A stretch of 64,000 nt of DNA from an uncultured Candidatus Saccharibacteria bacterium (GCA_946548715.1 CAMNPZ010000002.1:2908-66907), one strand, 5' to 3'. Shown: positions 21,699 through 60,208, counted from the stretch's first letter. Translations and numbers: made by a program. Notes: generated from the letters alone by a model not told the origin.

Positions 21699-23822
21699 AT
21701 GAATAAAGTAGATGCGGAGCAAAGAATCGCGAAATTGCGCGAATTAATTAACGATTATCGGTATCATTATCATGTGCTGGATGAGTCGACGATGAGTGAG
21801 GCGGCGGCGGATTCGTTGAAGCATGAGTTATCAAGGTTGGAGGAGGAATATCCAGAATTAATCACGCCGGATTCACCAACGCAACGAGTAGCGGGGAAGC
21901 CGTTGGATAAATTCACAAAGGTACGGCATGAAAAACGGATGATTTCTTTGGCTGATGTGTTCTCAGAAGAGGAGGTGAAAGATTGGATTACACGAAATGA
22001 GAAGTTGATTCCAGGTGGGCATATTGAAGAGTTCTTCACTGATATTAAGATGGACGGACTAGCATGTTCGCTAAAATACCGTGATGGTGTATTTGTACAG
22101 GCGGTGACGCGAGGGGATGGACTCGTGGGCGAAGACGTAACTCTTAATGTCAAAACGATTGAAAATATACCATTGCGCATTTCGATTTCCGAAGAAAACG
22201 AATCTCAGTTGAATCTCGGGGCGCGTCCGGCCGGCCCGTCGCCACGGGCGGCCGGCGCTACCCCTCGGCTTGCCAGCCTCCGGACCCCCTCGATTTCAAC
22301 TGAGACTTCGTTTCCTTCAGAAGTCGAGGTGCGGGGTGAAATTGTGATTTTCAAGAAGGATTTTGACCGTTTGAATGAAATTCAGCGGAAGCAGGGTGAG
22401 GCGGAGTTTGCAAATCCGCGGAATTTGGCGGCGGGATCGATTCGACAACTTGACCCGAAGGTGGCGGCGAGTCGTCCGTTGAAGTTTATTGCTTACGATT
22501 TGGTGACACCGGATAGGCCGACTTGGCATGAGGCATATGAGACTTTGAGAGAATTGGGATTCCAGACTTCAAATGAAGATAGGGTGTTTCGAGCAGATGA
22601 AATGAAGGAATTATTCCGGTATATTGGTGAACTCGACGAATACCGTAAGGGTTTGCGTTTCAATACAGACGGGATGGTGATTAAGATTAATGATAGAGCG
22701 GTGTATGATAAATTGGGGATTGTTGGGAAAACCCCGCGCGGTGCGGTGGCGTATAAGTTCCCGGCGGAGGAGTCGACGACGGTGGTGCGCGATATTGTGA
22801 TTTCGATCGGGCGGACTGGTGCGGCGACGCCGGTGGCGATACTGGATCCGGTGCAAGTGGCTGGCACAACAGTGCGTCATGCTTCGCTACATAATGCAGA
22901 CGAGATTGCGCGGCTTGATGTGAGAATTGGCGATACGGTGATTATTTACAAGGCGGGTGATATCATTCCGCAGGTAAAAGAGGTGCTTTTGACGCTGCGT
23001 CCGGAAGGAACGGAGGCGTTTGATTACGAAAAGGCGTTGAAGCGACAGTACCCGGAGTTGCAGTTTGAGCGACCGGCGGGTGAAGTAGTATATAGAGTGA
23101 AAGGCGAGTCGTCGAATCTGATATTGAAACGAGCGATTGAATATTACGCATCGAAGCCGGCATTAAATATAGAAGGGTTGGGAGAGAAAAATGTAGAGGC
23201 TTTGATAGACGCGGGGTTGATTGGTTCGATTGCGGATTTGTATCGGTTGAAAGAATCGGAAGTAGCAAAACTGGAAAGATTTGGTGAGCTTTCGGCGCGG
23301 AATTTGGTGACAGCGATTGAAAAGGCGCGAACTCCGGCACTAGGAAAGTTCATTACGGCGCTGGGGATTCGGCACGTGGGGGCAGCGACGGCGACAAGTT
23401 TGGCACGGAGGTTTAAGAGTTTGGATAGACTAATGGAAGTGACGGAAGAAGAGTTGATGGCGGTGGATGACATCGGCGAAGTGGTGGCGGAGTCGATTGT
23501 AGCGTGGTTTGCAGATGAAGACAATGCGAAAATGTTGGAAGAGTTGCGGGAAATGGGGGTGTGGCCGCAAGAAGAGAATACCGATGAATTGCCACTTGTT
23601 GGCCAATCGTATATTGTGACTGGAACGCTGGCTGCGATGGGACGCGAGGAGGCAGAGGATAGACTGCGAGCGTTGGGCGCGACGGTGACTTCGTCGGTGA
23701 CGAAGAACACGACGGCGTTGATTGTGGGAGAGAAACCAGGGAAATCTAAAATGGATAAGGCGGCTAAATTAGGCACGCCGGTAATGAACGAAGCGGAATT
23801 TCTCAAATTAGTAAAAATGTGA
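21699..23822 (+). CDS. ligA: NAD-dependent DNA ligase carrying an in-frame palindromic insertion
   Basis: KMDGLA adenylation motif, [20 protein letters not shown]-terminal BRCT. Confidence 0.97.
22181..22328 (+). mobile_element. In-frame palindromic element, copy in ligA (sense)
   Basis: Core 22214-22293 with cccgtcgccacggg at 22235-22248; arms gaagaaaacgaatctcagttgaa / ttcaactgagacttcgtttccttc. Confidence 0.85.
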
Positions 23823-23838
23823 TATAATGAAACTGTGC

Positions 23839-58799: not shown

Positions 58800-60208
58800 A
58801 ATACTTGGCGGTACTTGGTAGACAACCGGAAATTTCAATTGCTGAGCTTGAGGCTCTTTATGGCTTGAGGCAGCATCAAACATCTTTCTCGGGCTGCGTC
58901 GCCGCCGCCCGTCGACCTTTCAGATCGTCCGCCGGGCGTCGCCTCGACACGGAAAGCAAGCTTTCCGTCTGCTCGGCTCCTACTGCGGTCTGCCACGGGG
59001 GCGGCGCGCTCATCCTCGCCTTGCCAGGCTCCGGAGGCCCTTCGAAAGACGTTTCGATGCTGCCGTCTATAAATCGTCTCGGCGGGACTCTTAAGTTGGC
59101 GATTGAACTTGCATGTTCACCGCTAGACTACTTAAGGGGATTGCCGGAGGGTAAGATTACGCTTGGGGTGAGTGATTATTCGGCGAAAGCATCGCGGAAG
59201 ACGGCGGTGATGGAGGCGCTGAAGCTGAAAAAAATATTGGTGCGGCATGGACGAAGTGTGCGAGTGGTGGAGAATAGGGAGGCAACGCTGTCCACGGCGA
59301 CGTCGCTACATAATGGACTATCAGGAAAGAATCCACGGAAAGTGGAACTGATTAAGGTGGAGAATGACTGGTACCGCGTGATAGGGGTGCAGGATATTGA
59401 TGCTTACGCGAAACGTGACCAGGCGAGGCCGGCGCGAGATGCGCGAGTAGGGATGTTGCCGCCGAAGTTGGCGCAGATATTGATCAATCTATGCGGGCCG
59501 CTTGAGCTTGGTTCGGTGGTTTTGGATCCGTTTTGCGGAACAGGAGTGGTACTGCAAGAGGCTATGCTGATGGGGTATCGAGCATACGGAACGGATTTGA
59601 GTGAGAGGATGGTGGAATATAGTGAAAAGAATTTAACATGGCTTATGAAATCCAAAAATATTCATTCTCGGGGCGCGTCCGGCCGGCCCGTCGACCTTGA
59701 TGGTCGCCCGCTGGGCGTCGCCTCGACACAAAACGCAAGCGTTTTGTCTACTCGGCTCCTACAGCGGTCTGCCACGGGCGGCCGGCGCTACCCCTCGCCT
59801 TGCCAGGCTCCGGACCCCCTCGAATCGAATATTTTCTGGATTTCACAAGGCGATGCAACTTCTTTTCAATGGGAGCAACCAATCGATGCGGTGGCATGTG
59901 AGGGCTATCTCGGAAAACCGTTTAGTCGGGTGCCTTCGGAAATGGAGTTGAAAGAGCAGAAGCAGGAGTGTGCGGCGATAGTGCTAGGGTTTTTGAAGAA
60001 TTTGGCGGGGCAGGTGAAGGCGGGAGCACCGGTGGTGATTGCGGGGCCGGCGTGGCTACGGCCAGATGGGGAGTATGAGCGGATGGAGATACTTGACGAG
60101 ATTTCTGATATGGGGTATAATGTTAATAATAAAACGCGCGAGGGGCTGCTTTATCATCGGGATAATCAGGTTGTCGCGAGAGATATAATAATATTAAGGA
60201 AGAATTAA
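58796..60208 (+). CDS. TRM11/UPF0020-like SAM-dependent RNA methyltransferase with two in-frame palindromic insertions
   Basis: GMLPPKLAQILIN, VLDPFCGTG, ACEGYLG. Confidence 0.8.
   Translation: MKYLAVLGRQPEISIAELEALYGLRQHQTSFSGCVAAARRPFRSSAGRRLDTESKLSVCSAPTAVCHGGGALILALPGSGGPSKDVSMLPSINRLGGTLKLAIELACSPLDYLRGLPEGKITLGVSDYSAKASRKTAVMEALKLKKILVRHGRSVRVVENREATLSTATSLHNGLSGKNPRKVELIKVENDWYRVIGVQDIDAYAKRDQARPARDARVGMLPPKLAQILINLCGPLELGSVVLDPFCGTGVVLQEAMLMGYRAYGTDLSERMVEYSEKNLTWLMKSKNIHSRGASGRPVDLDGRPLGVASTQNASVLSTRLLQRSATGGRRYPSPCQAPDPLESNIFWISQGDATSFQWEQPIDAVACEGYLGKPFSRVPSEMELKEQKQECAAIVLGFLKNLAGQVKAGAPVVIAGPAWLRPDGEYERMEILDEISDMGYNVNNKTREGLLYHRDNQVVARDIIILRKN
58869..59064 (+). mobile_element. 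In-frame palindromic element, long form, copy 1 in the methyltransferase
   Basis: cccgtc|78-nt module 58914-58991|gccacggg; arms ggcagcatcaaacatcttt / aaagacgtttcgatgctgcc. Confidence 0.85.
59646..59845 (+). mobile_element. In-frame palindromic element, long form, copy 2 in the methyltransferase
   Basis: Core equals the ligA core plus a 78-nt module 59693-59770; arms tgaaatccaaaaatattc / gaatattttctggatttca. Confidence 0.88.

Follow-up and report, generated by a model that had tools for sequence, protein, structure and literature searches.

Insertions in the window and their host genes

The stretch of DNA analysed here, 64,000 nucleotides (nt) from an uncultured Candidatus Saccharibacteria bacterium (GCA_946548715.1, CAMNPZ010000002.1:2908-66907), carries six GC-rich palindromic insertions, copies A to F, inside housekeeping genes. 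This whole stretch is referred to as the window, and all its coordinates are counted from its first letter. Pfam matches identify the host products as an NAD-dependent DNA ligase (ligA), a UvrD/PcrA helicase (pcrA), an M1 aminopeptidase (pepN), a tyrosyl-tRNA synthetase (tyrS) and a methyltransferase whose gene carries two copies. The whole hairpin of copy A lies at 22181..22328 on the plus strand in ligA (open reading frame (ORF) 21699-23822), with its core at 22210-22298. Copy B occupies 25970..26083 on the minus strand in pcrA/uvrD (ORF 24159-26315, minus), and its core (25983-26071) is sense to the gene. Copy C, at 38446..38563 on the minus strand in pepN (ORF 37985-40471, plus), has a core (38461-38549) that is antisense to the gene, and its pairing extends outward to 38417-38431 / 38576-38590. 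Copy D (57775..57892, plus strand; core 57791-57876) lies in tyrS (ORF 57405-58799) and is the most divergent of the six, with an altered second hairpin. Copies E (58869..59064, plus strand; core 58883-59049) and F (59646..59845, plus strand; core 59662-59828) are composite hairpins in the same methyltransferase gene (ORF 58796-60208).

The host ORF remains open through the insert in all six copies. Copies A, B and D share one frame, E is read in a second and F in a third, and C is antisense to pepN. An initial annotation, made from the sequence alone, had proposed six in-frame insertions at these positions, read in three frames and once in antisense; both statements are confirmed, the former by position, fold, covariance model, Pfam hosts and open ORFs. 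The G+C content of the cores is 69-76%, against a window mean of 45%. All six copies fold into a long outer stem with a three-way junction (z-scores -5.9 to -8.4), and none of 200 shuffles folds equally well. A covariance model of the family, R1, built from 24 copies and run over the whole window with filters off, returns these six copies only (E 1e-22 to 3e-07), the next match having E = 0.57. The outer arms are locus-specific in all six, as had been noted, and nothing in the window is able to mobilise the element, in agreement with the proposal that it is non-autonomous.

Core structure and covariation

The core, about 85 nt long, is a three-way junction closed by the long locus-specific stem. 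In the orientation of copy A it comprises, from 5' to 3', the basal stem P1 (consensus approximately TYTCGGGG / CCCCGARA), P2 (GCG/CGC, 3 bp), a bulged T, P3, a bulged G, P4, a joining strand, P5, the sequence TCCGRA and P1'. P3 is a 7-bp stem of free sequence, with 40 distinct stems among 105 parsed cores; the covarying 7-bp stem with an unpaired T and an unpaired G on its 5' strand, described in the initial annotation, is thus present. P4 pairs CCCGT with ACGGG around a loop that reads CGCC in 70 copies, CGTC in 25 and CGTT in 5. The shared apical hairpin originally given as CCCGT-CGCC-ACGGG therefore holds in the form CCCGT-CGYC-ACGGG, the exact loop failing in copy D, which has CGTC. The joining strand after P4 is conserved. 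P5 is a short second hairpin of 3-4 bp with a 4-nt loop; the TGCC loop ascribed to it is found in five of the six window copies, and copy D deviates. Bulges, loops and junctions are conserved, and stem sequence is free. The motif TCTC occurs at most 16 nt 5' of P2 in 40 of 105 copies. The GC cores are also rich in CCGG, GGCC and GCGC sites.

Covariation is strong. On 95 further copies, standard pairs fill 96.1% of stem cells, a share that falls to 33-52% with slid partners; 15 of the 19 pairs vary on both sides, and none of 500 shuffles matches the observed score. The picture is the same on the seed alignment, and the seed alignment and the further copies together uphold the earlier view of a multi-copy family whose conservation is structural. 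In the core stems each pair shows 0-1 one-sided (G·U-type) states, so that pairing there is essentially Watson-Crick only.

Distribution in related Saccharibacteria

Comparison of LigA homologues groups the window with Saccharibacteria of ruminants and the gut, several of whose records are named Candidatus Nanosyncoccus. Loci from these relatives are designated below by L-numbers. R1 finds 29 more copies in 1.36 Mb around ligA from 80 species genomes. A strict DNA pattern matched at least 120 metagenome stretches, and in the 80 of these that were scanned R1 recognises 95 copies. The family-wide scan called for in the initial annotation, which had allowed for there being no further copies, thus yields 124 copies beyond the window, from related Saccharibacteria DNA totalling about 2.1 Mb. 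Three gut metagenomes show a word depth of 2000-5400 across the core and of 7-15 in adjacent single-copy gene sequence; core depth exceeds that of the flanks 200-400 times. A scan of viral contigs and a BLAST search of phage records gave zero copies.

Further host genes encode TruB, GyrA/ParC, an ArgRS-type domain, RluB, an FAD_binding_4-domain (PF01565) protein, RNase HII (two copies), TatD and a class V aminotransferase; a peptide search for the host range, with a short low-complexity query, returned eight proteins above threshold. Counting the window, 96 of 130 copies (about 74%) are embedded in long frames free of stops, with 15 or more codons to either side, and the remaining 34 are intergenic, at gene ends or at contig edges. 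The genic copies are sense in 53 cases and antisense in 43, use every frame, and are always frame-keeping and stop-free. Inserts in three frames and both orientations also occur among the 120 best LigA protein matches.

The expectation that the insertions occupy protein loops agrees with the structure of the ligase. Aligned with the solved adenylation domain 1B04, its 43 inserted residues correspond to one residue, in a turn between PLRLK and PVSLEARGE, so that the insert replaces a single residue of that turn. In an AlphaFold model of LigA, which has a shallow alignment and a whole-model mean predicted local distance difference test score (pLDDT) of 61, residues 164-203 show a pLDDT below 30 and no secondary structure between confident strands, weakly suggesting that the insert is disordered.

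Empty, scarred and filled sites

Empty orthologous sites reveal polymorphism between close relatives, as had been anticipated. At the ligA site (83 loci), about 50 alleles are empty (RIDEPGEV or RIDVDEA), about 11 carry short hairpins of 9-15 residues and about 25 carry inserts of 30-67 residues. Every deep clade of the LigA tree is empty, and the clade to which the window belongs is a mosaic. The right-flank signature of filled alleles is also present in the short hairpins, which are therefore deletion remnants. The pcrA site is empty in seven loci and filled in eight. At this site the flanks of L003 are 94% identical to those of the window, yet its core subfamily and arms are different and its orientation is opposite.

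Two of the window copies have empty counterparts in related metagenome strains. In place of 22182-22325 (copy A) one such strain has 15 nt, and in place of 57761-57920 (copy D) another record of a related strain has about 43 nt, about 117 nt fewer; in both, the arms are gone together with the core. The cleanest empty/filled pair is intergenic, upstream of ligA, where the window is empty (GGATG-CGTGATA-CAATGG) and L006 holds about 130 nt, made up of the core with its two arms and enclosed between two copies of CGTGATA. This 7-bp direct repeat is the one readable case of a target-site duplication, since the other filled/empty pairs are mostly 75-85% identical and their junctions unreadable. L003 carries hairpin scars of 7-9 bp both at this intergenic site and at the ligA site.

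Arms and core

The arms extend about 12-35 bp beyond the ends of the model, with a median of 17. Compared with the rest of 1.45 Mb they give no match, and a BLAST search with ten arms returned chance matches only. Two origins for the arms were considered and rejected. Duplication of the adjacent flank fails because the longest shared words equal those of permuted controls, and a resemblance seen by eye at pcrA does not generalise; copying from elsewhere in the same 5-20 kb locus fails because the 12-mer match rate equals that against other loci.

Cores behave differently. At least 17 pairs of cores at unrelated loci have 0-1 mismatch in 64 nt, and none of these pairs shares arms; near-identical pairs also occur on one contig (L093 3915/5778 and L141 1909/2337). 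Copies A and F of the window form such a near-identical-core pair at unrelated loci, their cores being about 95% identical once the nested module of F is excluded and their arms unrelated. The end of core identity is variable, falling inside or outside P1. The earlier claim of a mobile unit consequently stands in that the family spreads, and fails in that the spreading unit is the core alone, never the arms.

Orthologues with 94-97% identical flanks have elements that are identical throughout, and the arms are not hypervariable. Between more distant orthologues the arms are still homologous, with compensated differences (L137/L160, L162/L201 and L009/L027), as in the change from GAATATC/GATATTC to GGATACC/GGTATCC in L009/L027. 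In about half of the filled ligA alleles, the start of the left arm is the reverse complement of the allele's own native E-V-E codons; the cognate match is 7.86 of 12, against 6.66 ± 0.20 for non-cognate comparisons, and 200 permutations reach at most 7.29. The left arm of L011 is shared with the element-free L004 allele, the flanks are 99.8% identical, and the core and right arm replace 62 nt. Over the arms of 120 elements from all loci there are 1989 Watson-Crick pairs, 44 G·T, 81 A·C and 119 other mismatches.

Cores also flip. At the orthologous intergenic sites L162 and L201, whose arms are homologous and whose flanks are 89% identical, the cores are 100% identical but reverse-complemented; both orientations can therefore occur at one site. 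Collectively, in these comparisons arms behave as a property of the locus and cores as a property of the family.

The nested module and the tRNA-Glu neighbourhood

What makes copies E and F longer is a discrete module of 78-80 nt in the apical loop. In E, F and L008 it sits between CG and CC of the P4 loop, and most other copies are without it; in some of these, different inserts of 33-35 nt occupy the same point. The module lies at 58915..58992 (plus strand) in copy E, where other copies skip 79-80 nt, and at 59693..59770 (plus strand) in copy F, where they skip 78 nt. A free-standing, intergenic module of the same family, recognised by its own covariance model R2, is found at 35734..35806 (plus strand) beside tRNA-Glu. 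R2 also detects syntenic module copies in L004/L011 and L040, and others in L037, L059, L065, L091 and L164. The module of E and F is thus an independent second element family, and the long forms are nested composites of two families.

The free-standing module is bracketed by direct repeats of the tRNA-Glu 3' end, GATCTCGGCGGGAG, at 35698-35711 and 35884-35897, which look like att sites, and three repeats of the GATCTCGGCGGGAG type occur in L004 (16866-17064). The core stem P1 (ATCTCGGGC/GCCCGAGAT) resembles this tRNA-Glu repeat. Beside the module, at 35811-35905, lies a palindrome with 46-nt arms that are 80% complementary. The arm on the right extends over the 3' end of the tRNA-Glu gene, and the one on the left carries a degenerate inverted copy of that end. 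The region 32720-35593, from pyruvate kinase to tRNA-Glu, contains two ORFs without a Pfam match and a C5 cytosine DNA methylase, and may be a small island.

Other repeats and palindromes

The iPGM gene lies between two very large AT-rich nested palindromes of about 150-170 nt, at 47349-47500 and 49207-49378, with DNA fold z-scores of -11 and -13. The layers of these palindromes start with ..GATTTCTC.. and end with ..TTCGAAATC.., the TC/TC signature also seen at the base of several GC cores, and they may be shells of the same process without a GC core. A third, smaller core of about 45 nt, with the peptide L.A[AV]RPSLR and DNA like ..TCTCGGGCCGCTCCGGGCCGCTCGGCCAAGTCTTAGGCCCTTCGA.., has private arms and uses the same hot spots; it was found at the pcrA site in L031 and L024, at the ligA site in L004, L011, L019, L022 and L025, and in L028 at 1634-1783.

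Further repeats in the window include a 142-nt tandem repeat at 13875-14216, with two perfect copies and a partial third that reaches the start of a DinB/IMS-type polymerase ORF (14153-15592). Three paralogous genes (27979-29998, 55755-57374 and 62023-63272) share blocks that are 79-90% identical, and the syntenic L003 gene of this trio has a weak Pfam match to Fib_succ_major. The first and third paralogues also share an upstream promoter-like region, and a 32-nt tandem repeat at 61895-61990 lies upstream of the third.

Interpretation

The copies are probably best described as a family of short fold-back (palindromic) DNA elements, non-autonomous and belonging to Saccharibacteria of gut and rumen (the Nanosyncoccus clade), whose stems are self-templated and whose core moves or converts independently of the arms. 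In such a scheme, whole hairpins would sit in intergenic DNA and in tolerant gene loops; within genes only stop-free copies with a length that is a multiple of three would survive, to be translated as low-complexity loops. The two strands of a stem would be kept complementary by intrastrand templating, that is, by fold-back or template-switch copying of one arm from the other, so that templated stems could drift in sequence yet stay paired, with pairing creeping outward into native codons. Swaps of CG to GC without intermediates cannot arise by stepwise point mutation under selection and fit the copying of one stem strand from the other. In other systems, fold-back or template-switch synthesis is known as quasipalindrome correction.

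The core, in turn, would spread or be overwritten without the arms, by re-insertion at the centre of a palindrome or by gene conversion, and such overwriting would include reverse-complement flips and exchange between species. Identical cores across loci and species, private arms, variable tract ends and flips together fit core-only re-insertion or gene conversion; as the core is for the most part its own reverse complement, conversion could align either way round. When the inner part is deleted, 7-9-bp hairpin scars would be left behind; these may be re-used as landing sites, which would explain the insertion hot spots. Hairpin apexes also accept other modules, giving rise to nested composites. 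The fixed bulges, loops and joining strands imply a protein reader. Since genic copies are always in frame, they are most simply taken to be read through. Self-templating as the cause of perfect pairing, core-only transfer and translation of the inserts are steps that we infer from these patterns.

Several observations weigh against this interpretation. Genes for a transposase, a recombinase, an HUH enzyme or a reverse transcriptase and a RAYT-like ORF are absent from the window, and no autonomous relative was seen; around multi-copy contigs, as in the window, there are housekeeping genes only and no candidate enzyme. The scan covered the window and about 2 Mb of relatives' loci, and donors that share arms, or the enzyme, could lie elsewhere in the genome. 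The evidence on the origin of the arms is mixed: both are absent from the empty allele in three clean comparisons (copy A, L006 and copy D), in L011/L004 one is native sequence, as is also the case at the outer ends of the ligA arms, and the arms match nothing in the flanks or in their own locus. Within them, A·C mismatches are about twice as frequent as G·T, on core-sense and gene-sense strands alike. The sole 7-bp target-site duplication could instead be microhomology. Finally, the argument for translation comes from open frames, and the RNA data are assembled contigs of related strains.

A bolder formulation of the fold-back reading can be offered only tentatively. The element would represent a new class of mobile DNA in bacteria, a self-templating fold-back element in which a small branched core homes to, or creates, the apex of a hairpin or palindrome. 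The private arms would be made by snap-back copying at or after insertion, and cores would flip and swap between landing pads, producing composites nested like Russian dolls. A structure-specific enzyme would drive this, perhaps a tyrosine recombinase acting on a site that resembles the 3' end of tRNA-Glu. If true, such an element would, as a by-product, keep writing in-frame loops into essential proteins of a minimal-genome symbiont.

Alternative explanations

It is rather unlikely that no dedicated mobility is involved and that a few ancient palindromic insertions at tolerant sites, acted on by host replication and repair through hairpin-templated switching, gene conversion among dispersed cores and natural transformation among strains, account for perfect stems, uniform cores, flips and a patchwork of alleles. 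The variable end of core identity is what conversion tracts would give. Filled and empty allele classes are shared across species in near-identical backgrounds (as in L011/L004), the identity of elements in pairs with 94-97% identical flanks indicates that turnover is not fast, and the window contains other large palindromes without a GC core. Conversely, the emptiness of all deep ligA clades means that insertions occurred within the clade, and the single pcrA site at which 94% identical flanks enclose different arms, another core subfamily and the opposite orientation does not fit ancient insertion. The high copy number in many unrelated genes speaks against this explanation as well, and the conserved bulges and loops call for a selective reader.

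It is likewise rather unlikely that the element is a substrate of a known single-strand recombination or transposition system, whether attC-like, REP/REPIN-RAYT or a miniature IS200/IS605, in which an enzyme reads bulges and loops on folded single-stranded DNA. The conservation of bulged bases, loops and junctions beside variable stems is what such a reader would require, and the apical loop takes variable inserts, like the variable terminal structure of attC (PMC5027507). The TCTC motif 5' of P2 and the resemblance of P1 to the tRNA-Glu 3' end repeated around the free-standing second-family module point the same way. Specific features nevertheless speak against each of the three systems. For attC, there are no RYYYAAC/GTTRRRY boxes, the order, arm and spacing of the bulges are wrong, and there are no cassette arrays and no intI in the window. 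For REP, 74% of copies are intragenic, no 5' GTAG/CGTC tag is present and no RAYT is nearby. For IS200/IS605, the two hairpins differ from each other, and neither TnpA nor TnpB was seen in the window. Furthermore, none of these families produces locus-specific arms. The movement by a fold-recognising enzyme and the kinship with these systems that the initial annotation suggested find no support here, the attC test failing on both the R boxes and the bulge layout.

A functional RNA structure in mRNAs, be it a regulatory or stability element, a small RNA or an excised intron-like segment, is highly improbable. The predicted folds are very stable, and short metatranscriptome contigs, assembled from related strains, contain core sequence. 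Pairing nevertheless looks like a property of DNA rather than RNA: the orientations are near-equal (53:43), a quarter of the copies (34) lie outside genes, G·U pairs are almost absent and G·T is not enriched. The initial claim of conservation at the level of nucleic-acid structure therefore stands and is narrowed to DNA. Every genic copy keeps the frame and has no stops, which would be unneeded if the segment were excised; a contig from a run listed as 'RNA?' (RNA origin uncertain), in the assembly of a related strain, runs intact through copy D; and there is no Rfam match.

Selection of the inserts for the peptides that they add to host proteins has very little to recommend it: the inserts do lie in loops and are kept across species at some sites, but the same core in three frames and both orientations gives unrelated peptides, close relatives are without inserts, and the predicted order of the LigA insert is very low, albeit in a weak model. 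An assembly or binning artefact, conceivable because the source is a metagenome-assembled genome and listed as a possible chimera in the initial annotation, can be put aside, since the same elements occur at the same sites in independent ENA, NCBI and JGI assemblies and Logan contigs from several studies.

Implications

The genomes of Saccharibacteria are very small and are believed to contain few mobile elements. In this case a repeat with a hundreds-fold excess of gut-metagenome coverage sits non-lethally in genes for ligase, helicase, tRNA synthetase, gyrase/topoisomerase, RNase HII and others of this kind. Gene callers, protein family models and phylogenomic alignments will meet low-complexity inserts of 25-65 residues that are DNA parasites and not protein features. 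The combination of private arms, a flippable shared core and Watson-Crick-only covariation points to hairpin-templated DNA synthesis as an evolutionary force. If a structure-specific recombinase lies behind the element, it would form a compact recombination system tolerant of embedding in coding sequence.

Comparison with known systems

In Rfam 15 at the gathering threshold, only tRNAs reach the score, and a permissive search to E 10 over copies E and F and the free-standing module returned nothing meaningful. The literature searched likewise contains no earlier description, as the initial annotation had supposed, and elements that combine a shared core with a private stem are shown by no described bacterial repeat family.

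Rickettsia palindromic elements (RPEs), and with them intragenic miniature inverted-repeat transposable elements of bacteria more generally, are short palindromic repeats that occur in many copies in a reduced genome, lie in frame in unrelated housekeeping genes and are read through (PMC10969869). The present element is also short and palindromic, with many copies in frame in ORFs. Membership among the RPEs was nevertheless rejected, because RPE copies are alike from end to end and encode one conserved peptide, whereas here copies have only the central 85 nt or so in common and each locus has its own arms. Every frame and either orientation is used, cores are flipped or exchanged without arms, and a module is nested in the apical loop. 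Classification as a classical miniature inverted-repeat transposable element was rejected: terminal inverted repeats are not shared, the arms being unrelated even where cores are identical, and there is no insertion sequence in the window.

Parvoviral terminal repeats offer a likeness of behaviour only. Their terminal hairpins exist in two orientations, flip and flop, which arise by self-primed hairpin copying, and, as at L162/L201, a long stem carries a small asymmetric branched centre that occurs in two reverse-complement orientations. The difference is that here there is no viral genome, no terminal position, no Rep-type gene and no match in viral contigs or phage records.

The REP/REPIN-RAYT elements and the miniature IS200/IS605 elements are hairpins with extrahelical bases, thought to be active as single-stranded DNA and non-autonomous, and to this extent resemble the family described here. 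They differ in being extragenic, with 20-40 nt per unit, a conserved 5' tetranucleotide and arms that are identical between copies. Assignment to REP/REPIN-RAYT was rejected on the mostly intragenic location of the copies, the occurrence of CGYC only as the P4 loop, and the window's lack of a RAYT-like ORF. Miniature IS200/IS605 elements have similar subterminal hairpins at their two ends and insert 3' of a fixed tetra- or pentanucleotide. Here the two hairpins proved unlike each other, and the TCTC motif lay 5' of the core in only 40 of 105 copies; TnpA was looked for in the window only.

The GC clusters of yeast mitochondria, some of which lie in frame in var1, provide a further parallel, as do the double-hairpin and repetitive hairpin elements of fungal and sponge mitochondria. 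All are GC-rich hairpins in an AT-richer genome (PMC4478555). In them structure is kept over sequence, units merge and shuffle, exchange between species proceeds via flank recombination, and the mechanism of mobility is unknown (PMC4478555). The mitochondrial clusters are organellar, mostly intergenic and 30-60 nt long, with an AG target duplication, whereas the present element is bacterial and mostly genic and has a three-way junction of about 85 nt with fixed bulges and long private arms.

The attC site is a folded single-strand hairpin in which the extrahelical bases, the unpaired central part and the variable terminal structure matter and stem sequence is free (PMC5027507). Membership in this class was rejected on three counts. 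The R' RYYYAAC and R'' GTTRRRY boxes that define it (PMC5027507) are absent, the base consensus here being TYTCGGGG / CCCCGARA. The attC bulges are G...T opposite an AAC triplet with 6-bp spacing, whereas here a T and a G, both on the 5' arm, are separated by 7 bp. Lastly, attC sites mark cassette boundaries in arrays beside intI, whereas 74% of the present copies lie in ORFs and the window contains no integrase. The element works like the RPEs and the GC clusters of yeast mitochondria, and has its design logic in common with attC.

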